In this document: in pieces, positions 16,788 to 38,624 of the stretch
Position numbering within the stretch: the stretch's first letter is position 1
Layout of the letters: each line of letters begins with the position of its first letter
Assembly: GCA_013389075.1 (NCBI GenBank)
Contig: JACAEB010000116.1
Coordinates: 1 to 44,589, forward strand
DNA: 44,589 bases
Direction: 5' to 3'
DNA from: Alphaproteobacteria bacterium
GTDB taxonomy: Bacteria > Pseudomonadota > Alphaproteobacteria > JACAEB01
Notes under the pieces: generated by a model
What the model was told of the DNA's origin: nothing
The model's input: the letters and a program-made list of their open reading frames with translations, nothing else
Database searches by the model: none
Made by a program: the position numbers and the translations under genes

Positions 16788-17834
16788 TCAGGCCGGGGCG
16801 TAGCCCTTGAGCCAGGTGCCGCGCGCCTGCCAGACCGCGCGCCAGTTCGCGAGCGCCTCCGCGCGGGCGGGGGAGGGGCGCAGGCGGGCGAGGACGCTGA
16901 GCGCGAGGACGCGGATCAGCGGCCAGGCCGCGAAGAGCCCGAGGGCGAGCCAGCGGGTGGCGGGCGGGAAGTGGCGGCGGATCAGCTCCACCTTCGCCGT
17001 GAAGAGGCGGATGACCTTCTGGGCACGGACCTTTTCCGAGGCTCCGCCATAATGGATGATCCGCGCCTGCGGCGTGACGCGCGGCCGCGCGCCCTGCGCC
17101 CGGGCGCGCAGGCAGAGGTCGGTCTCCTCGCCATACATGAAGAAGGCGGGCTCAAAACCCCCGAGCGCCTCCCAGAAGGACCGCTCGATGAGGAGGAAGC
17201 AGCCGGTGATGACATCGACCGCGCGTTCGGTGTCGCGCTTCCAGCCGCCATAGAGCTCCGAGTTGAGGACGGGGCTCGCCGGGAAGAGGGCGCTCAGCCC
17301 CGTCGAGCGGCAGAAGAGGTTCCAGAGGCTCAGCCGGCGATAGCAGTTGGTGGGGTTGAGCGTGCGGTCGCCGTAGAGCGTCTGCCCGCCCCAGATGCGC
17401 GCCTCGGGCCGGGCCTGCGCGAAGGCGAGGAGACGGTCGATCGCGCCCTCGAGCACCACCGTGTCCGGGTTGAGGAGAAGGAGATAGCGCCCGCGCGCCT
17501 GCCGGGCGCCGAGATTGTTCGCCCGCCCGAAGCCGATGTTCTCCGCAAGGCGGATGAGCCGGGCCTGCGGGATCTCGCGCGCGATGGCGTCGGCCGAGCC
17601 GTCGGCCGAGGCATTGTCGACGACGATCAGCTCCATGGGCGCCGACGTCTCGGCGAGCGCCGAGCGCAGGGCGGCGAGGGTGATCTCGCGGGTGTTGTAG
17701 CTGACGACGAGGACGGTGACGGCGGGCTCGGCGCCGTCGGGCAGGCCGCGGGGCGGACCGTCCGGCGCGGTCCGCAGGGCGGCCTCCTCGCTCATGGACA
17801 TGTCTGCATCGGACGTCATGCGCCGCTTACGCAC
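16788..17834 (-). CDS. Family-2 glycosyltransferase
   Basis: The N-terminal GT-A fold reads VTVLVVSYNTREITLAALRSAL...ELIVVDNASADGS, followed by LLLNPDTVV (DxD-like) and FFMYGEETDLCLRA. This matches rhamnosyl/galactosyl-type GT2 enzymes. Start is GTG 17834 or ATG 17819. Confidence 0.85.
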   Translation of the reverse strand: MRKRRMTSDADMSMSEEAALRTAPDGPPRGLPDGAEPAVTVLVVSYNTREITLAALRSALAETSAPMELIVVDNASADGSADAIAREIPQARLIRLAENIGFGRANNLGARQARGRYLLLLNPDTVVLEGAIDRLLAFAQARPEARIWGGQTLYGDRTLNPTNCYRRLSLWNLFCRSTGLSALFPASPVLNSELYGGWKRDTERAVDVITGCFLLIERSFWEALGGFEPAFFMYGEETDLCLRARAQGARPRVTPQARIIHYGGASEKVRAQKVIRLFTAKVELIRRHFPPATRWLALGLFAAWPLIRVLALSVLARLRPSPARAEALANWRAVWQARGTWLKGYAPA

Positions 17835-18022
17835 CTTTCTCGGGGGGAGGCCCTTCTCACAACAGAAGCCCTCGGGTCGCGTTCGCTCTTTTACGCTAAA
17901 AAGGGTTCGGATTTGATGACTCGCGCCGCCGGCGCCGCGCGCGTCGGGGGGCGAATCGGTACGGTCCGTGCAGGCGCCACCCCTCGCTTCCCGCCCCGGC
18001 CGCCTTCGGAGCCCTGCCGTTC

Positions 18023-18904
18023 ATGTCCTCGTCCTCCCCCTCGCGCGCGCCTTTCGACCCGGTCATCATGATCGGCATGCACCGCTCGGGCACCTCCGCC
18101 CTGACGCGGGCGCTCGAACGTCTCGGCCTCTTCGTCGGCGCGGCCAAGGACGTCAATGACGAAGCGCTGTTCTTCCAGCGGATCAATGTCTACTTCATGG
18201 GCCATGCCGGCGCGGGCTGGACCACGCCCGAGCCCTTCGAGGCCCTGCTCGCCAATGCCGAGCTCAGGGCGCTGCTCGCCGATTATGCGCGCCAGCGCGT
18301 CTCGGGGCCGGGCACGATCGGGTTTCTGGGCTGGCAGCGCGCGCTCGGGGGCACCGATCTGCGCAGGCGCACCCGGCCCTGGGGCTGGAAGGATCCGCGC
18401 AACACCTACACCCTGCCGCTCTGGCTCGATGTCTTCCCCCGCGCGCGCGTCGTGCACATCCGCCGCAACGGGGTCGACGTCGCGCTCAGCCTGAAGAAGC
18501 GGGAGAGCGAGATTCTCCGTGCACGGGCGGCCCGCTACGAGCGGCGCAAGGCCCTCTACCGCCTGATCGACAAGAGCGGCAACTTCGCCCTCTCGGCCGG
18601 CTTTCCCGATCTCGAGACCGGGTTTCGCCTGTGGGACCGGTATCTCAGCCGCGCCGATGCCCATTGCGCGGAGCTGGGCGAGCGGGCGCTGACGCTCAAT
18701 TACGAGGACTTCGTCGCCGACCCGCTGCCCGGTCTGAGGACGCTGGTGCGGTTCATCGGTCTTGATGCGGATGCTGATTCGATCGCGGCGGAGGCGGAGC
18801 GTCTCGATTCGGGACGGGCCAATTCCTATCGCAGCTCCGAGGCGTGCGTGCGCTTCGCCGAGGCGCATGCCGACATTCTCGCCCGGCACGGCTACACACC
18901 CTGA
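18023..18904 (+). CDS. Sulfotransferase-family protein (PAPS-dependent type)
   Basis: It has the 5'-PSB-like loop VIMIGMHRSGTSALTRAL and the 3'-PB-like VVHIRRNGVDVALS. It is 293 aa and diverges from the GT2 gene at 17834. Confidence 0.75.
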   Translation: MSSSSPSRAPFDPVIMIGMHRSGTSALTRALERLGLFVGAAKDVNDEALFFQRINVYFMGHAGAGWTTPEPFEALLANAELRALLADYARQRVSGPGTIGFLGWQRALGGTDLRRRTRPWGWKDPRNTYTLPLWLDVFPRARVVHIRRNGVDVALSLKKRESEILRARAARYERRKALYRLIDKSGNFALSAGFPDLETGFRLWDRYLSRADAHCAELGERALTLNYEDFVADPLPGLRTLVRFIGLDADADSIAAEAERLDSGRANSYRSSEACVRFAEAHADILARHGYTP

Positions 18905-19113
18905 AAAAACAACGGCTTGAGCGCCCATTCCGTCCACGGACGGAGACTTGCCGGAAGCTGACGGACAGATGAACTCTCTGTAAAGAAACCTATTTCGACT
19001 TCAGGCATTGTTCATGCTACGACCACCTGAACGAGAGGCCGGTCAGGCTGGCTGTCCGCAACGGGCAGGTGGGGTGCACTTCCCTGAAATCGTTCCAGAC
19101 GGGGGCTTTCTCC

Positions 19114-19857
19114 ATGAACTGCAGAAACGGCAAGCGGGCGCTCGCCTTCGGCGCGGCCTTCACCTTCATCGCCGCCATGGCGGGGGCGGACCCCGCCGAG
19201 GCCGCGACCCAGCGCTACTTCGTGGTGGACGGGACCGGCAGCACCCAGATCCAGCCGCTCACGGGCGTCGAAACGCTGGTGCAGCTCTATGGATACAACA
19301 CCGGTGTCCAGGCTTCGGCGAACACGCCCTACGACATCGAAGAGACGAACCAGAACACCCAGACCTTCTTCCTCTTCCGCTCGACGACCACCGGGGATCT
19401 CGGCCTCTTCTCGCTGGCCGGGGCGACGGTGAATGGCGGCTATGCCCAGAGCTCGGGCTCGCTCACGGGTCTGCCTCTGTCGACGACGCTCGCCGTGAAG
19501 GACGATCCGGGCGGAACGCTCGACAGCTATGTCCTGTCGGGCAGCACCTTCACCTATTCGAACCGCTCGGCGCCCAACAAGACCGACGGCTTCGCGCTGG
19601 GCGGGCTCGCGGGCCAGCTCTTCTCGATCACCTCCTCGATCGGGCCGGGCCTCAACATCGACAGCATCCGCATCGCCACCCGCCAGGGCGGCGGGGTGGG
19701 CTATTTCACGCTCTCGAACGTGCTGCCGGGCGGCAGCTTCGAGATCGTGGCCTCGCTCGTTCCCGAACCGGCGACCTGGGGCCTGATGATCGCCTCCTTC
19801 GCCCTGATCGGGGGCACGGTGAAGCGGCGCGCGCGCGCCGTGTCCGGGGCGGCCTGA
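19114..19857 (+). CDS. PEP-CTERM-type sorting-domain protein (exosortase cargo)
   Basis: Signal peptide MNCRNGKRALAFGAAFTFIAAMAGADPAEA, then a Ser/Thr/Gly-rich, Cys-free mature region. The C-terminus VPEPATWGLMIASFALIGGTVKRRARA (nt 19759-19854) has the tripartite PEP motif + TM helix + basic cluster. ATG 19114 is preferred over the upstream alternative start at 19069. Confidence 0.85.
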   Translation: MNCRNGKRALAFGAAFTFIAAMAGADPAEAATQRYFVVDGTGSTQIQPLTGVETLVQLYGYNTGVQASANTPYDIEETNQNTQTFFLFRSTTTGDLGLFSLAGATVNGGYAQSSGSLTGLPLSTTLAVKDDPGGTLDSYVLSGSTFTYSNRSAPNKTDGFALGGLAGQLFSITSSIGPGLNIDSIRIATRQGGGVGYFTLSNVLPGGSFEIVASLVPEPATWGLMIASFALIGGTVKRRARAVSGAA

Positions 19858-19884
19858 CCGCCGCCAGCCCGGCCGATGATCCGA

Positions 19885-19915
19885 GCGCCGCAGCCTTGCC
19901 GCTGCGGCGCTTTTT
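19885..19915 (+). terminator. Rho-independent terminator
   Basis: GCGCCGCAGC-cttgcc-GCTGCGGCGC forms a perfect 10-bp GC-rich stem and is followed directly by TTTTT. It lies 28 nt after the cargo-gene stop. Confidence 0.85.
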
Positions 19916-20019
19916 CGTGCGTTTCGCGCGCCGGGGCCGGCGACCGCCGGCTTAACGGCGCCTTGAAACTCACCGGCTAGGGTCGAGGGACGCGGCGCGA
20001 GGAGACGGGCAGGGAGGCC

Positions 20020-20262
20020 ATGGAGACCTATTTCGACTGGATCACGGTCCTTGCCTTCATGATCATCGCGGGCACCTTCTTCTATCGTGTCCGGGCGGAG
20101 GATCCTCCGCTCGTTCTCTATGTCGGGCTCAGCATCGGCTGCGCCATCGCCAACTGGCTCGGCAATGAGGGACATGTCATTCCGGCCTTCGTCGCCATCG
20201 GCGCGGTGGTGGGGGGCTATCTCCATGTCGGCTGGTCCGAGCGCCGGCCCGGCCGCGGCTGA
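20020..20262 (+). CDS. Small integral membrane protein (about 3 TM helices), unknown function
   Basis: 80 aa with AGGGAGG just upstream of the ATG. Three hydrophobic segments are present: WITVLAFMIIAGTFFY, LVLYVGLSIGCAIANWLG and VIPAFVAIGAVVGGYLHV. Third-codon-position GC is high, as in neighbouring genes. Confidence 0.6.
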   Translation: METYFDWITVLAFMIIAGTFFYRVRAEDPPLVLYVGLSIGCAIANWLGNEGHVIPAFVAIGAVVGGYLHVGWSERRPGRG

Positions 20263-20298
20263 CGCGCGGCCGAGGGGGACGAGGTGGGGGAAGCGGCG

Positions 20299-21207
20299 AT
20301 GGACGAGGCCGGCGAAGACGGGAGGACGGCGGCCGGGGGAGAGGCCCCGGAGATCAGCGTCATCGTTCCCCATTACAACGACACGGCCCGGCTCGGGCTC
20401 TGCCTCGAGCGTCTGATCGCCCAGAGCGTGCCCGCTCCGGACTACGAGATCATCGTCGTCGACAATGGCACGCCCGGCGGGCTCGGGCCGCTCGTGGCGC
20501 GTTTCCCGCAGGTGCGCTTCCTCGTCGAACCGCAGAAAGGCGCGGCCCATGCCCGCAACGCCGGGGTCGCCGCCGCGCGGGCGCCAAGGCTCGCCTTCAT
20601 CGATTGCGACTGCATCCCCGAGCCCGACTGGCTCGCGGCCGGCCTTGCGGGCCTTGCGCAGGCCGATCTCGTGGGCGGCTCCGTCACCGTGACCTGCTCC
20701 GATCCGGTCCGGCCGAGCCCCGTCGAGCGGTTCGAGCGCATCTTCGCCTTCGATCAGGCGCGATACGTGCAGGAAAAGCACTTCTCGGTGACCGCGAATC
20801 TACTAACACATCGGGTGGTGTTCGATGCCGTCGGACCCTTCCGCGACGGCTATCCCGAGGATGTCGACTGGTGCCACCGGGCAAGGGCCAAGGGCTATCG
20901 GCTCGCTTACGTGGAGGCGGCGCGCGTCTCCCATCCGGCGCGCCGGAGCTGGGCGGAGCTCGAGAGCAAATGGCGCCGGACGAGCCGCGAGGCCTTCCGC
21001 GCGGCCCGCGACCAGCCCGGCTGGCGCTGGCGCTGGCCGGCGCGGGCGCTCCTGGTTCTCGTCTCGCCCTTCGCGCATGCCGGCCGCGTTCTGGGCTCGT
21101 CCGAGGCCGGCGGACCGCTGGCACGGATCGCAACGCTCCTGGTGCTGTTTCGCCTGAGGCTGTTTCGAGTCCGCTTCATGCTCGCCCTTATGGGAAAGCG
21201 GCCTTGA
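20299..21207 (+). CDS. Family-2 glycosyltransferase
   Basis: Motifs: ISVIVPHYNDTARLGLCLERL...YEIIVVDNGT, then AFIDCDC (DxD-like) and EDVDWCHRA. Start is ATG 20299 or GTG 20284. Confidence 0.85.
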   Translation: MDEAGEDGRTAAGGEAPEISVIVPHYNDTARLGLCLERLIAQSVPAPDYEIIVVDNGTPGGLGPLVARFPQVRFLVEPQKGAAHARNAGVAAARAPRLAFIDCDCIPEPDWLAAGLAGLAQADLVGGSVTVTCSDPVRPSPVERFERIFAFDQARYVQEKHFSVTANLLTHRVVFDAVGPFRDGYPEDVDWCHRARAKGYRLAYVEAARVSHPARRSWAELESKWRRTSREAFRAARDQPGWRWRWPARALLVLVSPFAHAGRVLGSSEAGGPLARIATLLVLFRLRLFRVRFMLALMGKRP

Positions 21208-21516
21208 TGCGGTAAGATGGCCGGAGTAACAGGCGTGCCAACAGGCGGGCGGGCTTCGTTCACGGCCCGGCTCGGTTTATGCACAGGCTGTCCCGTGCCT
21301 TTTCCCCAAAGGGGGGGATCGTCGGGGGGCGGGGCCGGACGGCGAGGCAAGGGATTGTGACAGGGGTACGGGCGTCCGGAGGGGACTGCCGGTACAGATG
21401 CGGGGTCAGGCCCGCGACGCGCCGCCCGCGAGGCGGCGATGGCCTGCCGGGCGGTCCTCACCACCGGGAGGCGAAGCGTCCTGCAGGCAGGGCGCTGCGA
21501 AAGAGGGCTGAGTGTG

Positions 21517-22791
21517 ATGCGTAGTCGTGAGGACGGGAACCGCCGGACGGTCCGGGAGCTTCGCCCGAGCGGGGCGGGGAGCGTGAGCCGCATTGCCCTG
21601 TGCGTCGCGCTGGGCGCGGGACTGCTGATGCCGCAGGCAGCGGCGGGGGCGCAGCTGCGCGGCTCGATCTCCGCGAGCACGCAATATGACAGCAACCTCA
21701 CCAAGGCCGCGGACGAGGACGAGCTCGCCGCCATCTACGGCACCGACCGCCAGCTCTACGACCTCATCAGCACCATCGGCGCGGGGGCGAGCTACAGCCT
21801 TCAGTCGAGCCGCTCCGCCGTCTCGGCCAACGCCTCGATCAACTACACGAAATATCTCGAATATGACGAGTTCGACGCCGGCGGCGGCCAGGCGGGGCTG
21901 AACTGGACGCTCGACGTCACCCCGAACTGCAACACCGGCCTCAACGGCACCTATTCCCTGCGGCAGAGCAGTTTCGACGAGAACCAGGTCCGCAAGCGGA
22001 ACCTGCAGAGCCGGTACGCCGTGCGGGTGCAGGGCCGCTGCCTCATTCTCGGCCGCTTCGACACCGTCGCCTTCGCGGGCTACGACCAGGCGACCAACGA
22101 GGCGGAGATCCGGCAGAGCCAGGACCGCGAGCAGTATGTCTATGGCGGCTCGTTCGCCTATCGCACCGGGCGGGGCAATCTGTTCGGCGTGCGCGGCCAG
22201 TACCGGGAGAGCAAGTTCCTCAACCCCGACCCGCTGGCCACCCAGAGCCTGGACTTCACCGTCTCCCAGCTCACCGCCTTCACCCAGCTCGCGCTCGGCT
22301 CGACGCTGTCGCTGTCCTTCGATGCCGGCCATTCGCGCAGCGAGCGCGAGGGGGCGAGCTCGGCGAGCTCGCGGCCGTCCTATGCCGCCTCGCTCTCCTG
22401 GTCGCCGACGGCGCGGACCTCGCTCAGCTTCAGCGCCAAGCAGACCATCAGCGAGATCGAGGACCGCCTGAGCGCCGCCCGCGAGCGGCTCGATTTCGCT
22501 CTCGGCGTCAGTCATCAGCTCACGGGCCGCATGTCGGCGCGCCTGAGCGGCAACTACACGCAGGACAAGGTCCTCAACGACATTGGCGAGGTCGACCTTC
22601 TGCCCACCAATCTCACCACCGACGACGAGGAAGAATCCGTCCGCGCGTCGCTCGGCCTGTCCTATTCGCTGACGAGCCGCGTCGGCCTCACGGGCGCCCT
22701 GACCTATGCCCAGCGCATGTCCGACGTGGCGCTGCGGGAATATGAGAGCTACGGGGCCAGCCTGTCGCTCACCATCGCCCTCGGAAACTGA
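21517..22791 (+). CDS. Outer-membrane beta-barrel protein associated with PEP-CTERM/EPS loci
   Basis: Signal peptide ...RIALCVALGAGLLMPQAAAGA, then about 400 aa of alternating-polarity beta-strand sequence rich in Y/S/T/G/N/Q (ASYSLQ, GTYSLRQ, GGSFAYR, SLGLSYSLT, GASLSLTIALGN). It is the first gene of the export operon. ATG 21517 is preceded by AAGAGGG. Confidence 0.7.
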   Translation: MRSREDGNRRTVRELRPSGAGSVSRIALCVALGAGLLMPQAAAGAQLRGSISASTQYDSNLTKAADEDELAAIYGTDRQLYDLISTIGAGASYSLQSSRSAVSANASINYTKYLEYDEFDAGGGQAGLNWTLDVTPNCNTGLNGTYSLRQSSFDENQVRKRNLQSRYAVRVQGRCLILGRFDTVAFAGYDQATNEAEIRQSQDREQYVYGGSFAYRTGRGNLFGVRGQYRESKFLNPDPLATQSLDFTVSQLTAFTQLALGSTLSLSFDAGHSRSEREGASSASSRPSYAASLSWSPTARTSLSFSAKQTISEIEDRLSAARERLDFALGVSHQLTGRMSARLSGNYTQDKVLNDIGEVDLLPTNLTTDDEEESVRASLGLSYSLTSRVGLTGALTYAQRMSDVALREYESYGASLSLTIALGN

Positions 22792-22802
22792 GCGGAGCCG
22801 AT

Positions 22803-23882
22803 TTGACGCAGCACAGCCCCAGACCTGCCGACGCCGCCCCGCCCGTCCGCCCGGGGCGTGCGCGCCTTGCGCACATGCTCGCCCTTGCGCTGGCGCTCGG
22901 TCTGGGCGCCTGTCTTCCGGATACGGACAAGTCCGCCGAGGGCGAGGCTCGCAAGGACGAGGACGGTCAGGTCGTGGCGCGGGTCGATGGCGAGGAGATC
23001 ACCATCCACCAGGTGAATTCCGAGCTGCAGCGCAGCGGCCTTCTCGGCTCCGCCGACGAGGCCGCCCGTGACGCGGCGCTTCAGGCGATCGTCCGGCGCA
23101 AGCTGCTCGCGAACGCGGCGATGGCCGAGCGCCTCGACCGCAATCCGCTCGTCGTCCACAATCTCGAGGCGGCGCGCGACGCGGTGATGGGCGAGGCCTA
23201 CATGATGCAGGAGCTCGCGGTCGTGACCGAGCCCTCGCTCACCGAGATCGACGACTTCATCGCCCGCAATCCGCTTCTGTTCACCGACCGGCGCAGCTAT
23301 GTCGTCCGGGTGATCGAGATGCCGTCGGAGGCGTATACGGACGAGTTCGTTCCGCTCTTCGACGAGACGCCCGATTTCACCGCCTTCAAGCGCGAGCTTC
23401 TGGGCGCGGGGGTCGCCTTCGACGAGGCGCGGTCGATCCGTCTGTCCTCGGATTTTCCGGAGGCTGTGCGCGAGCGTCTGGCCCAGCTCGGTGTCAACGA
23501 CAATCTCGTGCTGCGCACGCGGAGCGCGACGCAGATCCTCAAGGTCGAGGCGATCACGCCCATGCCGCTCAGCACCGAACAGGCGCGCGTGGCGGCGCGG
23601 TCGATCCTGCTCCAGGACCGTCTGCGGCGGACGGCGGGAACGCTCGACCAGGCGCTCGCCGCGAAGGCGGAGATCGCCTATTACGGCGCCTTCGACCACC
23701 TGAACCCGCAGGCGGACGAGCCGGCGCTCGAACGCATCGGCCCGCTCGATCCCGATGGGGCGGCGGCCGGCGAGCCGGGCGCCGAAGCCGGAGCCGAGGC
23801 GGAGGCGGGACCGGAGGCCGAGGCGGAGGACGCGAGTGCCGTGCCCGCCATCCGCGGCGCCGCGGCCGCCGACACCATGTGA
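22803..23882 (+). CDS. EpsD-like lipoprotein (SurA/parvulin-related, degenerate PPIase) with an acidic Glu/Ala-rich tail
   Basis: TTG 22803 has GGAG 5 nt upstream; ATG 22875 is the alternative. It has the lipobox LALGLGAC and the SurA-N/EpsD-like opening VARVDGEEITIHQVNSELQ. The C-terminus is low complexity: GAAAGEPGAEAGAEAEAGPEAEAEDA. Confidence 0.65.
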   Translation: MTQHSPRPADAAPPVRPGRARLAHMLALALALGLGACLPDTDKSAEGEARKDEDGQVVARVDGEEITIHQVNSELQRSGLLGSADEAARDAALQAIVRRKLLANAAMAERLDRNPLVVHNLEAARDAVMGEAYMMQELAVVTEPSLTEIDDFIARNPLLFTDRRSYVVRVIEMPSEAYTDEFVPLFDETPDFTAFKRELLGAGVAFDEARSIRLSSDFPEAVRERLAQLGVNDNLVLRTRSATQILKVEAITPMPLSTEQARVAARSILLQDRLRRTAGTLDQALAAKAEIAYYGAFDHLNPQADEPALERIGPLDPDGAAAGEPGAEAGAEAEAGPEAEAEDASAVPAIRGAAAADTM

Positions 23883-23961
23883 TTGGCCGGCGCGTGGCCC
23901 TTGGGGCCTGCCGGCGTGGAACGGAAGAACGCCATCCGGTGTTCGCAACTGGAGACCAGCG

Positions 23962-24819: not shown

Positions 24820-24850
24820 ACGGAGTATCGCGGCTGAGGTGGGAGCCGGA

Positions 24851-28855: not shown

Positions 28856-29129
28856 GCAGGGGCCCCGTGACCATGTCGCATGAGGGGACGGGGACGGCGC
28901 ACGGGCGCGTAAGGGAGCCTTCACCCGGCCGTGCCAAAGTGGAACCTCGCCCCGGCCGGCGGCTTGCCATCACGGGGACCGGGCAGCCGGGGCACACAGA
29001 ATCGTGGCATTGGCCCCGGAGCGTCCCGCCTCGGGCCCTGCCGGAAGGGCCTTTGGCCGGGGTGGCACGGGCAGGACGGTCTGCGCCCTGGGGCGGGGGC
29101 GGTGCGTGAGACAGGAAGGGTCCGAACCG

Positions 29130-30602: not shown

Positions 30603-31511
30603 TCAGGCGGCGTAGGCCGGATCGACCTCGAAGCCAAGGGCCCGGACGGCTTCGATGTCCCGCGCCGCGAAGGCCTCGGGGGGAGCCGCGCGATAACGCC
30701 CCATCGAGCCCGGTTCGCGCGGCAGCCCCGCGAGGCGGTCGCGCTCCTGCGGGGGCAGGGAGAGGCCCGCAAAGGCGAGGATCTCGTCGACGGCGGCGCG
30801 TGGATCGGCGACGAGCGTCTCGAAGCGCAGCACGAGATGCCGGCCCGGTAGGGCGCGGGCCGAGAAATCCAGCGTGCGCTGATTGGAACGGACCCAGTAG
30901 GCGAGGCTGCGGCGCGGGGCATCCTCCGCCCCCGTCCCGTCTATGCCGAAGAGCGGCCCCCAATTGTAGAGCTGCTGCTGGTTGCCGCTCAGCGCCATGT
31001 CGAGCCCGTGCCGCATGACGTGGATGTAGCGCAGGCCCGGAAAGGCGCGCGCGAGCTGCGGCAGGAAGATGTGGGCGTTCGGCTCCTTGAAGCCCCAGCC
31101 GAGCCGGTCGTCGGGCAGCGTGAAGGGCAGGAGGCCCTTGCCGAGGCGAAGATAGGGCCAGAGGCCCTTGCCCGACCCGTTGGGGGCATGCCCCGTCCGC
31201 GCCATCGCCGCCGCCTTGCCGAGCAGGAAGGCAAGATCGCTCCCCGAGCGCGCGGCGGGACCGAAGAGGCCGGCCTTCAGCAGGCGGAGTTCCGTCTCGA
31301 GCGCGGGAAGCTCCGCCTCCGGAGGAAGCGGTCCCGTCCCGAGCAGGCCGCGCTGCTTGAAGAGGAGCGTGAACCAGAGATTGTCGAGCGGGCCGTTGAG
31401 GTCCCGCCCGATATAGAGCCCGGCCTCGGTCAGGATCTGGGCGACGACGCGCGTTCCCGATCCGCCGCCGCCACCGACCACGAGGGGAGGGGTGTCCGCG
31501 ACGGGCGTCAT
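30603..31511 (-). CDS. Sulfotransferase-family protein
   Basis: This is the C-terminal part of the 836-aa track ORF. The real start is ATG 31511 (MTPVADTPP), overlapping the upstream gene's stop (ATGA). It has the PAPS-loop-like VVGGGGGSGTRVVAQIL and the 3'-PB-like YIHVMRHGLDMALS. Confidence 0.75.
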   Translation of the reverse strand: MTPVADTPPLVVGGGGGSGTRVVAQILTEAGLYIGRDLNGPLDNLWFTLLFKQRGLLGTGPLPPEAELPALETELRLLKAGLFGPAARSGSDLAFLLGKAAAMARTGHAPNGSGKGLWPYLRLGKGLLPFTLPDDRLGWGFKEPNAHIFLPQLARAFPGLRYIHVMRHGLDMALSGNQQQLYNWGPLFGIDGTGAEDAPRRSLAYWVRSNQRTLDFSARALPGRHLVLRFETLVADPRAAVDEILAFAGLSLPPQERDRLAGLPREPGSMGRYRAAPPEAFAARDIEAVRALGFEVDPAYAA

Positions 31512-33067
31512 GACCGCGGCCCCGATCCGTGCGGCAGGAGACCCCGCCGGTCGAGGTCGAGCGCCACGAGCGCGGTGCCGCAGACCATGAAGAAGATCGG
31601 AAAGTTCGCGTCGATCGACAGCACGAGCTTGACGATCGCAAAGCCCATGATCGCGCAGGCGAGCGCGAGCAGGAGGTGACCCTCCGGCCCGTCGCGCGAA
31701 TAGGATCGCAGGAAGAGCTGATACATGAGCAGGCCGAACAGCGTCACCATGGCGATGAGGCCGGGAATGCCGGTATCGAGCACGATGTTGATGTAGTAGC
31801 AGTCGACCGTCAGGTTCTTGAAGGTGCGGTAGCCGAGCACCTGCAGCGCATTGCCCGCGCCGTATCCCACGACCGGGCTCGCCGCGATGCGGGGGATGGC
31901 CTGCTTCCACTGGTCGATCCGGTGCTGGCTCGAGGCGGCCGTCGACGCGGTGTCGCCCTTGGCGATCTTGGCCGTCGCGGCGAGGATGGCCGGCCCCCCC
32001 ATGGCGAGCCCCCCGGCGATGAACAGGGCGACGAGAACCCGGTAGCGCGAGAACGGGTTGAAGCGCTGGAAGCGCACGAGGCCGAGGCCGATGAACAGCG
32101 CGATCTCGAACAGGAAGGCCACCTGCGCGCTGCGCGAGTCGGCCGCCAGCACGGCCATCACGCAGGTCACGACGATCCCGAAATAGATGACCTGCATCAG
32201 GAAGTTGCGCGCCGTGATCAGGCGGTAGAGCACGAAGGGCACGCACAGCGCCACGAACTCGGCCATGGCGAGCGGATGGCTGAACGGCCCCTGGACCCGG
32301 TACTCGCCGGCGCGGAAGCGGCTCTCCTGGGCGATCATCGTCCATTCGGAGGAGATGGTCAGGAAGGCCGGCCAGTAGCGGACATAGGGGTTTTCCTGCT
32401 GCACCGCCTCGATGTTGGCGAGCACGGAGAGAAGTGTGACCGAGGCCACCAGCGCGGAGATGACCATCTCGATCCGCGCCCGCGAATTGATCACCACGCA
32501 GGCGATGATGACCGGCAGGAACCAGAAGAGGATCCGCTGCACCAGCTCGTAGGTGGTGATGTTCATGTTGTAGGCGAGCGGCGTCGAGGCGAGGAAGCAG
32601 ACGAGGAGGACGCCCAGCGTTACGAAGACCGGCTTGTTGTTCCCCACGATGGAGCTGAGCTCCCGGCGCAGCACCATGGAGGTCGCGAGCTGCCAGATCG
32701 TCATCACGAGGATGGCGTAGAACAGCACCTTGGGAAGGCTCAGGACCGGCATGCCCGGAACGTCGATCCCGCCATATTGCGGCCAGAGCGACCAGACGAA
32801 GACCATGAAGGCGAGAAGGCCGAAGGTGATGGCGCGCGTGTGGCTGCGGTTCTGGGCGGGCACGGCGAGCAGCACGGCGAGCCCGAAGGGCGCGAGCACC
32901 ACGATCGCCATCAGCGGGTTGAAGGTCAGGACGAAATAGCTGAGGAACAGCATGGCGAGCACGGCGCAGAGCACGAGCGCCACCACCCCCCAGGGGCTCG
33001 GCCCCCGGAAGGAGTGGTAGGTGGGGGGTGTCGGATAGACCCTGCCCCTCGTCGCCTCGTTCGCCAT
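31508..33067 (-). CDS. O-antigen ligase/polymerase-like (Wzy_C-type) polytopic membrane protein
   Basis: 519 aa with at least 10 hydrophobic helices and a large loop late in the protein (…TAKIAKGDTASTAASSQHRIDQWKQAIPRIAASPVVGYGAGN), as in O-antigen ligase/Wzy-family proteins found in exosortase loci. Confidence 0.7.
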   Translation of the reverse strand: MANEATRGRVYPTPPTYHSFRGPSPWGVVALVLCAVLAMLFLSYFVLTFNPLMAIVVLAPFGLAVLLAVPAQNRSHTRAITFGLLAFMVFVWSLWPQYGGIDVPGMPVLSLPKVLFYAILVMTIWQLATSMVLRRELSSIVGNNKPVFVTLGVLLVCFLASTPLAYNMNITTYELVQRILFWFLPVIIACVVINSRARIEMVISALVASVTLLSVLANIEAVQQENPYVRYWPAFLTISSEWTMIAQESRFRAGEYRVQGPFSHPLAMAEFVALCVPFVLYRLITARNFLMQVIYFGIVVTCVMAVLAADSRSAQVAFLFEIALFIGLGLVRFQRFNPFSRYRVLVALFIAGGLAMGGPAILAATAKIAKGDTASTAASSQHRIDQWKQAIPRIAASPVVGYGAGNALQVLGYRTFKNLTVDCYYINIVLDTGIPGLIAMVTLFGLLMYQLFLRSYSRDGPEGHLLLALACAIMGFAIVKLVLSIDANFPIFFMVCGTALVALDLDRRGLLPHGSGPRS

Positions 33068-33221: not shown

Positions 33222-34451
33222 TCAGCGGGCCGGATCCTCGGCCGGCGCGCCCGTCTTCGAAACGGCGGGGAACCCCGCGAAGAGGCGCGCATAGGCCGCC
33301 AGCAGCTTGGGCGCCTCGTGCGGCCAGCTCAGCTCGGTCTCGACGCGCCGGCGGCCGAAGGCCCCCATGCGCGCGCGCGCCTCCTTGTCGTCGATCAGCG
33401 TCAGGATCTTGTCGCCGAAATTGGCCGGATCGCCGTTGCGGGCATAGAGGGAGGCCTCCTGCGCCGAGAAGCGGCCCTCGGTGAGATCGTATTGCACGAT
33501 CGGCTTGCCGAGCGCCATGTACTCCATGATCTTGTTCATGGTCGACTTGTCGTTCATCTCGTTCGGCGTGTCCGGATTGACGCAGACATCGGCCGTGTTG
33601 AGCATGGCGAGGAGCGTGTCGTCCGGGACCCGGCCCGTGAAGGTCACATAGTCGGCGACGCCCATTTGTGCGGCGAGCGCCACGATGTCGTCGAAGGCCG
33701 GCCCGGAGCCGACGATGCCGAACTGGATGTCGGTCCGCCCGCGCGTGCGGACGATGTGCCGGACGCTCTCGAGCAGGAGGTCGAGCCCTTCCTGCGCGCC
33801 GATCACGCCCACATAGCCCACGAGATGGGCCCGGCCCTTCCTCAGGGCGGGGTCGGGGGGCAGGATCCTCAGCCGCTCGAGCTTGGGGCCGGAGCGCACG
33901 ACCACCACCTTGTCGGGGTCCATGCGGCCGCGCTCGATGGCGATGCGGCGATAGGATTCGTTGGTGGCGATCGAGATGTCGGCGGTCGCGAAGCTCGCCC
34001 GCTCGAGCCAGACGAGAAGGCGCCAGAAGAAATCCCGGCGGCCGAACTTCGCCTCGTAGAGCTCGGGATTGATGTCGTGATGGTCGAAGACGAAGCGCTT
34101 GCCGAAGAGCTTGAGGACCGCGCCGATCAGAAAGATCGTGTCCGGAGGATTGCAGGCCTGAAGCGCGTCGATGCCGTGCCGGCGCCAGACCTTCAGTGTG
34201 AGGAGCGCTTCCCAGAAGAGCGCGCTGCCATATTCGAGCACATAGCCGAGCGCGCCCTTGGCCTCGAGCGGCAGCGGATGGCGATAGACGTGGATGCCGT
34301 CGATCTCCTCGTGGGAGGCTTCCGCGTCCTTGCCCTTGGGGCAGATCACGCTGACGGTGTAACCGGCGGCGCGCAGTGTCGTCGCCTCGGCCCAGACCCG
34401 CCGGTCGAAGGGCACGGGCAGGTTCTCGACGATGATCAGGATGCGCTGCAT
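33222..34451 (-). CDS. Family-4 (GT-B, group 1) glycosyltransferase
   Basis: ATG 34451 has GGAGG 8 nt upstream. The N-terminus is MQRILIIVENLPVPFDRRVW. The C-terminal half carries a GT-B nucleotide-sugar-binding region including the EX7E-type motif (NEMNDKSTMNKIMEYMALGKPIV). Confidence 0.85.
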   Translation of the reverse strand: MQRILIIVENLPVPFDRRVWAEATTLRAAGYTVSVICPKGKDAEASHEEIDGIHVYRHPLPLEAKGALGYVLEYGSALFWEALLTLKVWRRHGIDALQACNPPDTIFLIGAVLKLFGKRFVFDHHDINPELYEAKFGRRDFFWRLLVWLERASFATADISIATNESYRRIAIERGRMDPDKVVVVRSGPKLERLRILPPDPALRKGRAHLVGYVGVIGAQEGLDLLLESVRHIVRTRGRTDIQFGIVGSGPAFDDIVALAAQMGVADYVTFTGRVPDDTLLAMLNTADVCVNPDTPNEMNDKSTMNKIMEYMALGKPIVQYDLTEGRFSAQEASLYARNGDPANFGDKILTLIDDKEARARMGAFGRRRVETELSWPHEAPKLLAAYARLFAGFPAVSKTGAPAEDPAR

Positions 34452-34479
34452 CGCTCGAACCTCCCCGGACGAGCCGGCC

Positions 34480-35793
34480 CTACCAGTTGATCCCGTCATA
34501 GCGGTCTCCGAGGCCGTCCGTGCCCGGAATGCGCACGAGGTCGACGAGCCGCTGATCGGCCCGCATCAGCCCCGGCACCCCGGCGAAGGCGGGGTCGTTG
34601 TTGCCGATCACGACGATCTCGCCATGGGCCACGGTGGCGGCGAGGTCCTCGCTCATCAGCTCGGCGATGTGCGGGATGACGCGCAGGATGTAGTCCTGAT
34701 TGGCGCCCGTGAGCCGCGCGAGGTGGACGTTGCGGTCATAGAGGCGCAGCTCGCAGCCCTTGCCGATCAGCCGCTCGATCACCTCCACCTGCGGGCTCTC
34801 GCGCAGATCGTCCGTCCCCGCCTTGAAGGAGAAGCCGAGGAAGGCGATCTTGCGCCTGCCGGTGGCGAGAATGCGCTCGACGCAGCGGTCGATCTGTTCG
34901 CGGTTCGAGGGCAGGACGGAGTCCAGCACCGGAAGGGCGAGGTCGAGCGAGCGCCCCATATAGGTCAGTGCCCGGAGGTCCTTGGGCAGGCAGGAGCCGC
35001 CAAAGGCGAAGCCCGGCATCAGGTAGGTGCGGGAGATGTTGAGCTTGGTGTCCTGGCAGAAGATCTCCATCACCTCGTGGCTGTCGATGGAGAGCGCCTT
35101 GGCGATGTTGCCGATCTCGTTGCCGAAGGCGACCTTGAGGGCGTGCCAGGCATTGTCCGCATACTTCACGAGCTCGGCCGTCTCAACCGAGGTGACGAAG
35201 AGCGGTGCATCGAGCATGGCGTAAAGCTCGGCCACCGCCTTGCCGGTTTCGGGATGGAGCGAGCCGATCACCGTCTTGGGCGGATTGTAGAAATCCTTGA
35301 CCGCCGTAGACTCGCGCAGGAATTCCGGATTGTTCGCGACGCCGAAATCGGTGCCGGCGGCAAGCCCGCTCGCGGCTTCGAGCGCGGGGATGACGAGGCC
35401 GCGCATGGTGCCGGGCAGGATGGTCGAGCGGATGACGACCGTATGCCGCGAGGACTTGCCCGCGATGGCCCGGCCGATCTCGCCGCACACGGCCTCGACC
35501 GCGCGCGTGTCGAGGCTGCCGTTCCGGCGGCTCGGCGTGCCCACGCAGACGAGCGAGATGTCGGTGGCGGCGATGGCGGCGGTGCTGTCGGTGGTGGCGC
35601 GGATGGCGCCGCGCCCGACGGCGTCCTCGATGATCTCGGGAACGCCGGGCTCGATGATCGGCGCCTGGCCGCGATTGATCAGGTCGACCTTGACGGGGCT
35701 CACATCGACGCCGACGACCTCATGGCCCTCCCTGGCGAGGCAGGCGGCCGTGACGGCTCCGACATAGCCGAGCCCGAAAACGCTGATCTTCAT
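34480..35793 (-). CDS. algD: GDP-mannose 6-dehydrogenase-like nucleotide-sugar dehydrogenase (AlgD family)
   Basis: 437 aa. MKISVFGLGYVGAVTAACLAREGHEVVGVDVSPVKVDLINRGQAPIIEPG, NPEFLRESTAVKD, GFAFGGSCLPKDLRALTY, SFKAGTDDLRESP and the C-terminal ...GINW run collinear, as I recall it, with Pseudomonas AlgD (MRISIFGLGYVGAV... ending GICW). They fit AlgD better than Ugd-type UDP-glucose dehydrogenases. Confidence 0.8.
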   Translation of the reverse strand: MKISVFGLGYVGAVTAACLAREGHEVVGVDVSPVKVDLINRGQAPIIEPGVPEIIEDAVGRGAIRATTDSTAAIAATDISLVCVGTPSRRNGSLDTRAVEAVCGEIGRAIAGKSSRHTVVIRSTILPGTMRGLVIPALEAASGLAAGTDFGVANNPEFLRESTAVKDFYNPPKTVIGSLHPETGKAVAELYAMLDAPLFVTSVETAELVKYADNAWHALKVAFGNEIGNIAKALSIDSHEVMEIFCQDTKLNISRTYLMPGFAFGGSCLPKDLRALTYMGRSLDLALPVLDSVLPSNREQIDRCVERILATGRRKIAFLGFSFKAGTDDLRESPQVEVIERLIGKGCELRLYDRNVHLARLTGANQDYILRVIPHIAELMSEDLAATVAHGEIVVIGNNDPAFAGVPGLMRADQRLVDLVRIPGTDGLGDRYDGINW

Positions 35794-36012
35794 GCAGTCC
35801 GTCCCTTTTCCCTGACGCTACCGGCTCTTTTGCACTGCAACAAGCGCGCCATGCCTGTCCTAGAGAGGGTGTGGCTCCCGCCATGCGTGTCGGGGCATCC
35901 GGAGCGAGCCTCCCGCCAGCCTAGAGGGGAAAGATTGCGATCCGGTTCAAGGAGATGCCCCGACCACGGCCAACCCGGTGGAGGTCCGCCCGTTCCGCGC
36001 CGCGGCCCCGCC

Positions 36013-37101
36013 TCAGGGCGTCCCGTCGAGGTCGGGCCGGACATAGGGCGCGAGCATCGGCCCGAGGGCGCGCGAGACGATCTGGCTGCCCGTCCAGTTC
36101 ACATGGGTCTCGTCGAGCCAGAGATGGCTCTCCTGCACCAGCGGATGGACGGTTAGGACAGGGCCGGCCCCGCCCCAGACAGAGCGCTCGGCGGGCTCGG
36201 GCGGCGCCCCGAAGCTCGGCAGGTAGAGGAAGACGAGCCGCGTCCCGTGGGCGCGGGCGAGGGCGATGATCCTGCGGATGTAGAAGCGGTTGGCGCCGAA
36301 CTCGACCTCGGCGAGCGCCTCGGGGAGGAGCGGATCGTCGATGCCGGCCTGGAACCGCCGGGCGGCGGCCCTCAGCTCGGCCTCGGGCATGGTGCGGTCG
36401 CGGGATTTCCGGTTGCCCTCGGCATCGATCAGCACATCGCCCCGGTCGAGATTGGCGCCCGCATACTGGCCCGGCTCGAAGCGCGGGGCCGGCTCGAGGC
36501 CGACCGTCTGGGGCAGGGAGCGCAGGAACAGGTCGAGCTGGCGGCCGGGCAGGGCGACGAGGTCGCGCGCATAGCGCAGATTGCCGATGACCGGCGCCTC
36601 GAGAATGTCGCCCGCATCGGCGATGGTGGAGAACTGCGGGTGCAGGTGGCGTTCGGCGATCTCGGTCACCTCGAGGACGATGACGGGCACATCGCGCGAT
36701 TCGAGCAGCTCCTTGACGAGCGCATAGTGCAGGTTCCGGCCCATCTGCGGCAGGTTGAAGTTCACCGCATGCGCGGCAATCCCCTCCCGCGCGAGCGCCT
36801 CCTCGACGATCGCGGTCTGGATGGCCCCGCCCGTGCGCGAGGAGCCAAAGAAGGCGACGTCGATGGGGGTCGGGTCGAAATGGATGCGCTCGTAGATCCA
36901 GCGCGTCTTCGGATATTGCTGCGTCTCGTCGGCGCGGATGTAGCGCAGATAGTCCGAATGCGGAAGAAGACACATGAGGACGAGCGTCGCCACCATGGAG
37001 AGCGCCGTCACCCCGGCGAAGGCCGCCGTGGTGCGCCAGCCGCCGGCAAGCCGCCCCGCGGGCGCGGCATCGGTCGTGGCTGTGGTGGGCACGGTGTCCA
37101 T
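36013..37101 (-). CDS. AlgJ/AlgX-like (SGNH/DHHW-type) polysaccharide O-acetylation partner protein, membrane-anchored
   Basis: It starts 8 nt after the MBOAT stop. It has the N-terminal anchor AFAGVTALSMVATLVLMCLL, early FFGSSRTGG, and late LDETHVNWTG (a D-x-x-H type motif), as in AlgJ/AlgX/PatB-like acetyltransferases that pair with MBOAT proteins. Confidence 0.55.
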   Translation of the reverse strand: MDTVPTTATTDAAPAGRLAGGWRTTAAFAGVTALSMVATLVLMCLLPHSDYLRYIRADETQQYPKTRWIYERIHFDPTPIDVAFFGSSRTGGAIQTAIVEEALAREGIAAHAVNFNLPQMGRNLHYALVKELLESRDVPVIVLEVTEIAERHLHPQFSTIADAGDILEAPVIGNLRYARDLVALPGRQLDLFLRSLPQTVGLEPAPRFEPGQYAGANLDRGDVLIDAEGNRKSRDRTMPEAELRAAARRFQAGIDDPLLPEALAEVEFGANRFYIRRIIALARAHGTRLVFLYLPSFGAPPEPAERSVWGGAGPVLTVHPLVQESHLWLDETHVNWTGSQIVSRALGPMLAPYVRPDLDGTP

Positions 37102-37109
37102 GAAGGGGC

Positions 37110-38624
37110 TCAGAAGTTGAAGTAGATGAAGATCTGCGGGCGCCAGATGAGGGCTATCACGAGCGCGAGCATCATGCCCGAGGCGATCGCGACCGGGACG
37201 CTCGCCGCCGGCAGCAGCACCCCGCCCCGCTCCGCCGCGAACCCCGCGCCCTGCGCCGCCGGCGGGCCGAGGAGCCAGCGCGGCCGGGCGAGAGGACGGT
37301 CCGGATGCGGATCATAGGCGATGAGCCGCAGGATGGGCGGGGCCCGGAAGGCGAGGAGCGCGGCGAGGGCGACCATGAGGAGGTCGGCCATGCCATAGGA
37401 CGGGGCGGCCTCGCCCGGCGCGCCGCCGGTCATGCCCGACAGGAGCGTCAGGGCGCCGCCCACGCTCTCGGCCCGGAAGAACACCCAGGCGAGCGTGACG
37501 AGGAGGAAGGTGAGCGCCATCTTGGCGGCCGGCGGCAGCCAGCGGGGATCGCGGTCGAGGGCCGGGAGCCCCGCGCGCATCAGGTGGTTTGCGGTGATGA
37601 GCGAGGCATGGATGAAGCCCCAGATGACGAAGGTCCAGCCCGCGCCGTGCCAGATGCCGCCGAGCAGCATGGTGACGAAGATGTTCTGCAGGCGCGAGAT
37701 CTCGCCGCGCCGGTTGCCGCCGAGCGGGATGTAGATGTAGTCGCGCAGCCAGGTCGAGAGCGTGATGTGCCAGCGCCGCCAGAACTCGATGATGGAGAGC
37801 GAGCGGTAGGGCGTGTCGAAATTGAGCGGCAGCTTCAGACCGAAGAGGAGGCCGAGGCCGATCGCCATCTCCGAATAACCCGAGAAGTCGAAATAGATCT
37901 GGAAGCTGTAGGCGAGGGCGGCGACCCAGCTCGCCCCCATGTCGGGCGCGTGGCCCGCCTCGGCGAGGCGGAAGCCCAAATCGGCGATGGGCGCGAGATT
38001 GTCTGCGATCAGAACTTTCTTGCCGAGCCCCACGCAGAAGACGACGAGCCCCAGCATGGGCGCCACCGGATCGAGCGGGCGATGGGTGAGGGCGGCGAAT
38101 TGCGGCCGCATGTAGCTGTGGTGGACGATCGGGCCCGCCACAAGCTGGGGAAAGAAGCTCACGAAGAGCGCGTACTGGCTGAAGCTGCGCTCGTGGCTGC
38201 GGCTCGCATAGCAGTCGGCCACATAGGCGATCTGCTGGAAGGTGTAGAAGGAGATGCCGAGCGGCAGGAGGAGCCCGAGCGGCTCGTATGGCAGGCCCAG
38301 CGCCTCGGCCATGTTGCCGGCGAGGAAGTCCCAGTACTTGAAGAAGCCGAGAATGCCGAGATTGAGGCAGATGCCGACGATCGCGATCACCCGCGCCTCG
38401 GGCTTGGGGCGCTCGGCGCAGGCCGCGCCGAAATAGTAGTTCGCGACCAGGGTCACGATCAGGATGGCGAAGTGGAAGAGGCTCCACCAGGCGTAGAAGG
38501 CCCAGGAGGCCGCGATGAGAAGTCCCACGCAGGCGCCCCAGCGGCCGAAGCGACGTGCGAGGAAGAAGACCCCGAGCGTCAGCGGCATGAAGACGAGCAG
38601 GAAGATGTAGGAATTGAACAGCAT
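37110..38624 (-). CDS. MBOAT-family membrane O-acyltransferase (AlgI/DltB/PatA-like)
   Basis: The N-terminus MLFNSYIFLLVFMPLTLGVFF is typical of AlgI-like proteins. It also has the conserved FWRRWHITLSTWLRDYIYIPLGGNR with the catalytic His region. It is 504 aa and polytopic. Confidence 0.9.
   Translation of the reverse strand: MLFNSYIFLLVFMPLTLGVFFLARRFGRWGACVGLLIAASWAFYAWWSLFHFAILIVTLVANYYFGAACAERPKPEARVIAIVGICLNLGILGFFKYWDFLAGNMAEALGLPYEPLGLLLPLGISFYTFQQIAYVADCYASRSHERSFSQYALFVSFFPQLVAGPIVHHSYMRPQFAALTHRPLDPVAPMLGLVVFCVGLGKKVLIADNLAPIADLGFRLAEAGHAPDMGASWVAALAYSFQIYFDFSGYSEMAIGLGLLFGLKLPLNFDTPYRSLSIIEFWRRWHITLSTWLRDYIYIPLGGNRRGEISRLQNIFVTMLLGGIWHGAGWTFVIWGFIHASLITANHLMRAGLPALDRDPRWLPPAAKMALTFLLVTLAWVFFRAESVGGALTLLSGMTGGAPGEAAPSYGMADLLMVALAALLAFRAPPILRLIAYDPHPDRPLARPRWLLGPPAAQGAGFAAERGGVLLPAASVPVAIASGMMLALVIALIWRPQIFIYFNF

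Follow-up and report, generated by a model that had tools for sequence, protein, structure and literature searches.

The window analysed here is the whole of contig JACAEB010000116.1, 44,589 nt (44.6 kb) of an alphaproteobacterial assembly (GCA_013389075.1; GC ~69%). Positions 16788-38624 of this window, ~22 kb, hold a cluster of exopolysaccharide (EPS) genes that includes an exosortase and a PEP-CTERM cargo protein. The cluster is probably a functional Wzx/Wzy-dependent EPS locus coupled to a sorting module of the exosortase B (XrtB) lineage, that of Methylobacillus EpsH. Its export operon has the Methylobacillus-type EpsL-D-E-F-G-H-I arrangement and is not of the XrtA type, and its exosortase falls in a small clade of alphaproteobacterial sequences that is represented by metagenomes alone. 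This reading draws on the families to which the proteins were assigned, the order of the genes, the conservation of catalytic residues, and synteny in a relative with a 71% identical exosortase. The locus is a divergent addition to the catalogued exosortase-EPS systems, real but ordinary in kind, and leaves the class-level understanding of these systems unchanged.

Genes were called by third-position GC content (GC3) and then scanned against NCBIfam and Pfam. The scans recovered the inventory of the original prediction, placing all 19 of its genes between tRNA-Thr and metG in the order and on the strands that it had given. Block 1 consists of a family-2 glycosyltransferase gene (minus strand) divergent from plus-strand genes for a Sulfotransfer_3 protein, the PEP-CTERM cargo, an 80-aa membrane protein, and a second family-2 glycosyltransferase. 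Block 2, on the plus strand, runs from an EpsL-like barrel through EpsD, OPX, Wzz/EpsF, EpsG, exosortase, and EpsI to a MOP flippase, with intergenic gaps of -4 to 231 nt. Block 3, on the minus strand, comprises MBOAT, a 362-aa SGNH protein, an AlgD-like dehydrogenase, a GT4 enzyme, a Wzy_C protein, and a second sulfotransferase. The prediction had counted only three glycosyltransferases in the locus, and family scans returned exactly three, a fourth (the 776-aa GT2 described below) lying 12.7 kb upstream. The locus and its boundary genes are as follows.

16662-16736, minus strand: tRNA-Thr (TGT), left boundary (ARAGORN; Rfam, 70.1 bits)
16788-17834, minus strand: GT2a, family-2 glycosyltransferase, divergent from the rest of block 1 (PF00535, 73.2 bits)
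18023-18904, plus strand: sulfotransferase 1, Sulfotransfer_3 (PF13469, 73.7 bits)
19069-19857, plus strand: PEP-CTERM cargo, open reading frame from 19069 with the probable ATG start at 19114 (NF035944, PF07589)
20020-20262, plus strand: 80-aa membrane protein, XrtV accessory (NF045607, 78.2 bits; cutoff, 35)
20284-21207, plus strand: GT2b, family-2 glycosyltransferase (PF00535, 85.5 bits)
21439-22791, plus strand, start codon uncertain: EpsL-like outer-membrane beta-barrel (TIGR03014, 135.1 bits; cutoff, 275; PF10082, 55 bits)
22803-23882, plus strand: EpsD-family periplasmic peptidyl-prolyl isomerase/chaperone (TIGR02925, 113.6 bits; cutoff, 108.9)
23962-24819, plus strand: EpsE-type short OPX export protein (TIGR03028, 224.1 bits; cutoff, 262.65; PF02563, SLBB)
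24839-26218, plus strand: EpsF-type co-polymerase, Wzz (TIGR03017, 272.6 bits; cutoff, 422.75; PF02706)
26267-27184, plus strand: EpsG-type ATPase resembling bacterial tyrosine (BY) kinases (TIGR03029, 238 bits; cutoff, 313.8; NF053729, 42.6 bits; cutoff, 38)
27222-28130, plus strand: exosortase, XrtB lineage (TIGR03113, 265.2 bits; NF035943, 254.3 bits; TIGR02602, 133.3 bits; PF09721, 202.8 bits)
28127-28855, plus strand: EpsI, B-type (NF045609, 247.7 bits; cutoff, 220; NF045608, 212 bits; cutoff, 228)
29004-30581, plus strand, N-terminal ~100 codons uncertain: MOP-family flippase, Wzx (PF01943, 53.2 bits)
30603-31511, minus strand: sulfotransferase 2 (PF13469, 60.9 bits)
31508-33067, minus strand: Wzy_C-domain protein, polymerase or O-antigen-ligase-like (PF04932, 50.4 bits)
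33222-34499, minus strand: GT4 (group 1) glycosyltransferase (PF13692, 81.1 bits; PF00534, 63.9 bits)
34480-35793, minus strand: AlgD-like GDP-mannose 6-dehydrogenase (522.6 bits to 1mfz)
36013-37101, minus strand: membrane-anchored SGNH-type protein, 362 aa (invariant residues; AlphaFold2 fold matches)
37110-38624, minus strand: MBOAT membrane O-acyltransferase of the DltB/AlgI/PatA class (PF03062, 124.1 bits; DltB 6bug, 100 bits)
38840-40588, plus strand: metG, right boundary (NF001100, 543 bits)

The exosortase belongs to the superfamily defined by TIGR02602 (cutoff, 105.55) and PF09721, and its catalytic residues Cys199, Arg245, and His266 are invariant in an alignment of 22 exosortases. 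It falls below the cutoffs of the XrtB model TIGR03113 (265.2 bits; cutoff, 275), the XrtV model NF035943 (254.3 bits; cutoff, 313), and the XrtA model TIGR03109 (124.6 bits; cutoff, 208). The companion proteins point to XrtB. EpsI passes the B-type model and fails the V-type one, EpsD passes its own model, and although EpsL (135 vs. 275), EpsE (224 vs. 263), EpsF (273 vs. 423), and EpsG (238 vs. 314) are all under their cutoffs, these equivalog models are the best-scoring family for each of them. The seven genes stand contiguously in the order EpsL-D-E-F-G-H-I, which is the XrtB arrangement. On average, the exosortase is 41% identical to the XrtB sequences compared (n = 67) and 32% identical to exosortases adjoining accessory genes (n = 31), and in a neighbor-joining tree (distance-based and midpoint-rooted only) its clade joins the XrtB side. 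The claim that this is an exosortase/PEP-CTERM EPS locus with the EpsL-D-E-F-G-H-I signature is thus upheld by family matches and gene order. The exosortase and cargo genes, whose loss of function would have told against the prediction, are both intact, and the exosortase keeps its catalytic residues. Likewise, the NCBIfam and hidden Markov model annotation proposed with the original prediction did not place these genes in unrelated lipopolysaccharide or capsule families or reduce the locus to an ordinary O-antigen cluster.

The nearest exosortase, 71% identical, is encoded on a metagenomic Logan contig (L001). About twenty further exosortases share 50-58% identity, mostly metagenomic, with one from an alphaproteobacterial metagenome-assembled genome; betaproteobacterial XrtB proteins are 41-49% identical. 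Synteny with L001, another comparison that had been proposed, extends from the sulfotransferase gene through GT4 at 65-71% identity, and the L-D-E-F-G-H-I core is retained in three more alphaproteobacterial relatives (L002, L003, and L084), of which L003 and L084 also have the accessory gene. L001 contains one additional gene, at 1638-3170 between the accessory gene and the GT2 gene, which encodes a 510-aa protein with no Pfam or NCBIfam match and has no counterpart in the window. Scores within the clade straddle the models (XrtB, 260-282 bits; XrtV, 254-277 bits), with L001 and L003 just over the TIGR03113 cutoff at 282 and 278 bits. A bona fide XrtV locus used as a positive control (L083) clears both V-type models (exosortase, 319.6 bits; EpsI, 238 bits), and the bona fide XrtB locus of Parasulfuritortus (L007; 371.8 bits) has the same Eps L-D-E-F-G-H-I order as the window. 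The curated XrtB and XrtV models leave a small alphaproteobacterial clade unplaced, which is of use for tuning annotation models.

The closest described system is the methanolan eps locus of Methylobacillus sp. 12S (XrtB/EpsH; models TIGR03113, TIGR03014, TIGR02925, TIGR03028, TIGR03017, TIGR03029, and NF045609). It has the same contiguous L-D-E-F-G-H-I order; the EpsD and B-type EpsI models are passed by the window's proteins, the exosortase groups with XrtB, and EpsG shares the MshEN-like N-terminus. However, the window's exosortase, EpsL, EpsE, EpsF, and EpsG score below the cutoffs, and its clade is alpha- rather than betaproteobacterial. The locus also adds an XrtV-type accessory protein, has a PEPATW tail instead of the PEPGE(L/W)A tail of L007, and lacks a nearby priming transferase.

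The cargo has a signal peptide and ends in the C-terminal tail VPEPATWGLMIASFALIGGTVKRRAR, which matches the PEPxxWA-CTERM model NF035944 (37.7 bits; cutoff, 35) and PF07589 (21.2 bits; cutoff, 20.7). The tail reads VPEPATWG...KRRAR, with Gly where PEPxxWA ends in Ala. The PEPATW motif also occurs in L001, in L049, and in the XrtV locus L083, whereas the XrtB locus L007 has PEPGE(L/W)A. The cargo had no sequence match in the PDB, and its single-sequence AlphaFold model was unusable (predicted local distance difference test [pLDDT], 33). The 80-aa membrane protein clears NF045607 by a wide margin (78.2 bits; cutoff, 35), and its L001 homologue carries PF28242. Its family is small, with 58 clusters at 50% identity, the query's included, in an exhaustive search of 1.84 billion representative proteins; a word-index search gave only 3 relatives. 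Metagenomes were scanned for accessory loci with an alignment of nine accessory sequences. The original prediction had seen both the small transmembrane protein and the cargo but had not recognized them as curated markers of the XrtV system.

That system (NF035943, NF045608, NF045607, NF035944, and PF28242) shares with the window the 80-aa accessory protein, the PEPxxWA-type tail, and an alphaproteobacterial host. It differs in that the window's exosortase and EpsI are under the V-type cutoffs, the exosortase is only ~32% identical to exosortases in XrtV context, and the gene order is unlike that of L083; in addition, sulfotransferase, AlgD-like, and SGNH-partner genes were found in none of the XrtV-context loci examined. 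Because the curated models leave the clade unplaced, the accessory protein and the PEPxxWA tail evidently also occur alongside exosortases that are not of the XrtV type, and the clade raises the question of the accessory protein's role. XrtV is known from curated models only, with no mention in any paper of the literature library that was searched. It is probably the same as the exosortase-associated exoPS cluster reported to be widespread in Sphingomonadales (epsSMASH preprint, 10.64898/2025.12.21.693542).

The prediction had drawn attention to the lack of an initiating transferase and of PrsK/PrsR/PrsT, and the absence extends over all 44.6 kb. No Bac_transf or Glycos_transf_4 priming enzyme was detected on the contig by Pfam/NCBIfam scans, by a motif scan, or by phmmer with a WcaJ-type seed (whose own identity was confirmed at 510.8 bits). 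Family scans revealed no histidine kinase or TPR lipoprotein among the called genes, and a sigma-54 activator was found neither by family match nor as a GAFTGA motif in any contig open reading frame of at least 50 aa. What does not hold is the view that these absences make the locus unusual. Among XrtB-type loci from species-representative genomes (80 in the comparison set), Bac_transf occurs within 10 kb in 18 of the 42 that are fully flanked and is absent in the other 24, and a full-length GAFTGA activator is encoded within that distance in none of the 80. A priming enzyme is encoded in 9 of 19 accessory-carrying metagenome loci of at least 9 kb, and none was found within the DNA fetched for L001-L003 and L084. 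A polysaccharide locus often relies on a priming enzyme encoded at another site, as with WecA for E. coli O antigens, and assembly by Wzx, Wzy, a polysaccharide co-polymerase (PCP), and OPX requires a lipid-linked repeat unit. The Prs proteins, for their part, were defined from only some of the proteobacterial systems, and even there just 3 of 13 genomes have them close to EpsH (Haft et al., 2006; PMC1569441). The XrtA/PEP-CTERM systems that have them share with the window the logic of an exosortase and a PEP-CTERM cargo inside an EPS locus, but the window's exosortase is far below the XrtA cutoff, its contig has no Prs genes, and no sigma-54 box precedes the cargo gene. Since the Prs proteins are markers of XrtA systems and the priming gene is often distant, the absences are not the mark of an aberrant locus. 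The priming enzyme may be encoded elsewhere in the genome; with one contig surveyed, its genome-wide absence cannot be claimed.

Sigma-54 box matches on the contig are at chance level (12 vs. 10.4 expected), with none 5' of the cargo gene. One such match, TGGCGCGCTTGTTGCA at 35836-35851 (minus strand), has a single mismatch to TGGCAC-N5-TTGCW and precedes the AlgD-like gene by 43 nt, correctly oriented. As a separate observation, four XrtV-context metagenome loci encode full-length GAFTGA proteins resembling sigma-54 activators no more than 10 kb from the accessory gene (L088:4522-6243, L096:13177-14457, L098:13160-14452, and L107:4494-5876).

The Wzx/Wzy set is complete, with PF01943, PF04932, PF02706, and PF02563 all above their gathering scores. 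Within this set EpsG stands out by its N-terminus, a tandem MshEN-like cyclic di-GMP (c-di-GMP) motif (RLGEILVRMGALAPADVDRVVQVQ followed by SFGHVAVRQSLVTADQVRAALAHQ) that clears NF053729 (42.6 bits; cutoff, 38). All EpsG homologues retain this domain, which has already been recorded for the Methylobacillus EPS system (PMC5013675). Its arginine occupies motif 1 in EpsG proteins of the alphaproteobacterial clade, whereas most betaproteobacterial ones have it in motif 2. EpsG does not have the hallmarks of a BY kinase: its Walker A sequence, GDNSGST, is not of the GK(S/T) type and has no lysine, and a C-terminal tyrosine cluster is missing (one Tyr in the tail). The lysine is present in 16 of 74 EpsG homologues, and the tyrosine cluster is missing from most. 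In view of these two losses, a pseudokinase that responds to c-di-GMP is a likelier role for EpsG than that of a kinase. Since both the N-terminal motif and the losses run through the family, the EpsG "tyrosine kinases" of XrtB loci in general look like pseudokinases of this sort. In the window, EpsG would probably sense c-di-GMP as a post-translational input that replaces a locus-encoded transcription factor, and it offers a concrete case of a BY-pseudokinase with a predicted c-di-GMP-binding module.

Sulfotransferase 1 is a cytoplasmic type that uses 3'-phosphoadenosine 5'-phosphosulfate (PAPS), with an HRSGTS motif, neither transmembrane segment nor signal peptide, and no sequence match in the PDB. 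Sulfotransferase 2, also cytoplasmic, weakly matches the CurM sulfotransferase 4gbm. In an iterated profile search, nine of the 80 XrtB-type loci (L005, L007, L008, L040, L051, L058, L059, L061, and L074) had sulfotransferase genes no more than 10 kb from the exosortase, in one to three copies and often two or three; several of these loci are from Thiobacillus and sulfur-oxidizing relatives. The same search detected sulfotransferase genes in L001 as well but none in XrtV-context loci. In L007 (Parasulfuritortus cantonensis), a bifunctional sulfate adenylyltransferase/adenosine 5'-phosphosulfate kinase is encoded between XrtB and EpsI (10921-12417). Together, these occurrences make sulfation a recurrent, hardly described theme of XrtB loci. 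Sulfated extracellular polysaccharides and the corresponding clusters have been stated to be unknown outside cyanobacteria (PMC8205485), a view with which this non-cyanobacterial Wzx/Wzy cluster with two sulfotransferases contrasts. The synechan (xss) cluster of Synechocystis PCC 6803 described there likewise combines Wzx/Wzy-type EPS assembly with two sulfotransferase genes, but it has no exosortase module, eight glycosyltransferases, and its own XssS/R/Q regulators. The combination of sulfation, O-acetylation, and uronic-acid modules that had been predicted stands, with O-acylation as the broader term; sulfation as an oddity of this locus does not. Sulfated, acetylated uronic polymers are of applied interest.

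The dehydrogenase had been called AlgD-like, rightly so: it scores 522.6 bits against the GDP-mannose 6-dehydrogenase of P. aeruginosa (1mfz) and 257 bits against the best UDP-glucose dehydrogenase, which makes mannuronate the predicted uronic acid. The label AlgJ/X-like for the 362-aa protein was mistaken. This protein has no Pfam or NCBIfam match and is a member of a previously undescribed family of ~110 hypothetical proteins without a Pfam model, found in Steroidobacteraceae, Caulobacter, Sphingomonadaceae, Azohydromonas, and Vibrio. The family alignment shows no variation at Ser88, Gly121, or His333 and next to none at Asp330, and these residues follow the classical SGNH order. Its AlphaFold model (pLDDT, 92) has DltD as the best fold match, followed by GDSL lipases and PatB, with neither AlgX nor AlgJ among the top 50, and a profile search of PDB sequences with the family gave nothing under E=0.5. 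The adjacent MBOAT protein is DltB-like. Judging from the modelled fold, the two would form an O-acyltransferase couple that is analogous to AlgI/AlgJ-X but outside that family. The alginate genes (AlgD, AlgI/AlgJ/AlgF/AlgX) thus have in common with this locus a closely related dehydrogenase and an MBOAT with a periplasmic acyl-transfer partner. The locus differs in its Wzx/Wzy assembly without an Alg8/Alg44 synthase, in having no AlgX/AlgJ domain, in having no ORF that matches AlgF, and in a partner whose residues follow the classical order Ser...Asp-x-x-His and whose fold most resembles those of DltD and PatB. In the comparison set, the AlgD-like enzyme is rare, as are the MBOAT and the SGNH partner.

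The families suggest how the locus may work, although the polymer chemistry, the order of steps, the control by c-di-GMP, and the fate of the cargo are inferred. The AlgD-like enzyme would supply GDP-mannuronate, and a priming phosphoglycosyl transferase, presumably encoded off the contig, would start the repeat unit on undecaprenyl phosphate for extension by GT2a, GT2b, and GT4. Because the two sulfotransferases have no signal peptide or transmembrane segment, they would act in the cytoplasm before flipping. Wzx would then flip the repeat unit and the Wzy_C protein polymerize it, under the control of EpsF and of EpsG, probably a c-di-GMP-sensing pseudokinase. The polymer would be O-acylated in the periplasm by the MBOAT and its SGNH partner and exported via the short OPX protein EpsE and the EpsL barrel. 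In parallel, the exosortase and EpsI may cut the VPEPATW-transmembrane-KRRAR tail of the cargo and release it or attach it to the matrix, with EpsD and the 80-aa XrtV-type accessory protein possibly assisting in sorting.

Several points weigh against this scheme. Five of the seven Eps L-D-E-F-G-H-I proteins (EpsL, EpsE, EpsF, EpsG, and the exosortase) are under their equivalog cutoffs, which EpsD and B-type EpsI alone clear. No priming transferase is visible on the contig, so that a complete pathway is not demonstrated, and the 44.6 kb contain no genes for PAPS or GDP-mannose synthesis. Enzyme families alone underlie the predicted composition of the polymer. Moreover, disruption of EpsH in Methylobacillus left methanolan production unaffected (cited in PMC1569441), and the coupling of sorting to synthesis is therefore not established in any system.

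Four other explanations were weighed, and each was judged less likely than a Wzx/Wzy EPS locus of the XrtB lineage. It is unlikely that the locus is a divergent member of the XrtV system rather than of XrtB. The accessory protein and the PEPxxWA tail do clear XrtV-system models, and the PEPATW tail matches those of L083 and L049; however, the exosortase (254.3 vs. 313) and the V-type EpsI score (212 vs. 228) fall short where B-type EpsI passes, the exosortase is less similar to accessory-context than to XrtB sequences (32% vs. 41%) and joins XrtB in the tree, and the gene order is that of XrtB and not that of L083. The polymer might also not be a free EPS, if the Wzy_C protein were a ligase that transfers it to lipid A-core (as O antigen or capsule) or to the PEP-CTERM cargo (O-glycosylation). 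The only Pfam match of this protein is indeed the O-antigen ligase domain PF04932, and a homologue directly follows EpsI in L084 and L003, suggesting a tie to the sorting module. Nevertheless, PF04932 is common to Wzy polymerases and ligases, no exosortase-associated O-ligase matched at E<0.01, and the locus has no other polymerase candidate despite its Wzx, PCP, and OPX proteins, all of which makes a ligase improbable.

Even less can be said for an exosortase-EPS variant that really does without a dedicated priming transferase and without PrsK/PrsR-type regulation, for example by initiation with a GT2 enzyme or synthesis without a lipid carrier. Such a variant would account for the 44.6 kb without a priming enzyme or two-component pair, and for the same lack of a priming enzyme in the fetched DNA of the four nearest alphaproteobacterial relatives. 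It is nonetheless very unlikely: it measures the locus against the wrong subtype, the Prs proteins being those of XrtA systems; more than half of ordinary XrtB loci have no priming enzyme nearby, and a single contig is in view; and the presence of Wzx, Wzy, PCP, and OPX calls for a lipid-linked repeat unit, for which shared priming enzymes are commonplace. That the locus is a decaying or silent remnant, as the sub-cutoff proteins, the EpsG without Walker A lysine, and the missing priming gene could be taken to mean, has scarcely any probability. The genes show no frameshifts or truncations, coding GC3 is uniform, catalytic residues are kept, synteny survives in a relative at only 65-71% identity, and the loss of the Walker A lysine is a trait of the whole EpsG family.

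Within the favored reading of an XrtB-lineage EPS locus, a more specific proposal is possible but doubtful as a joint claim. The window, L001, L002, L003, and L084 might represent a distinct third exosortase subtype of uncultured Alphaproteobacteria that bridges XrtB and XrtV, combining an XrtB-type operon with an XrtV accessory protein and a PEPATW cargo. The branch comprising the window and L001 would then produce a sulfated, O-acylated mannuronate polymer, and output would be set by c-di-GMP acting on a kinase-dead EpsG and not by a transcriptional two-component system.

GC3 is 0.83-0.94 across all called genes of the contig, and no frameshifts or truncations were seen in the locus. A genomic island was considered and rejected on account of the uniform GC, with no att-like repeats, insertion sequence elements, or phage-integrase matches (the last among called genes) and with the locus on the 5' side of tRNA-Thr, whose 3' end is directed away from it. 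An Rfam scan of the contig returned three tRNAs only, with no c-di-GMP or other riboswitch, and promoter and terminator matches were not more numerous than in shuffled sequence.

The flanking genes are unrelated to the locus and encode RsmB, TauD, the 776-aa GT2, HlyD/AcrB, a methyltransferase, a TonB receptor, a phytase, HupE, PrcB_C, a 2-oxoglutarate oxygenase, SpoU, and a glyoxalase. In a collection of 15 billion proteins, four from the window (the exosortase, MetG, the AlgD-like enzyme, and the RND pump) each form a singleton at 90% identity, and the source organism has no close sequenced relative there. The 776-aa synthase-type GT2 (region 1795-8701) has weak cellulose-synthase-like matches and is directly upstream of HlyD-family and AcrB-family RND genes, with which it might form a separate synthase-dependent polysaccharide or glucan system. 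A minus-strand run at 10535-16525 encodes the TonB-dependent receptor, the phytase, two family-less proteins (344 aa with a signal peptide and 212 aa with a transmembrane segment), and a HupE/UreJ_2 membrane protein. Just 3' of metG, at 40630-41157, lies the gene for the small PrcB_C-domain protein, which resembles dentilisin PrcB.

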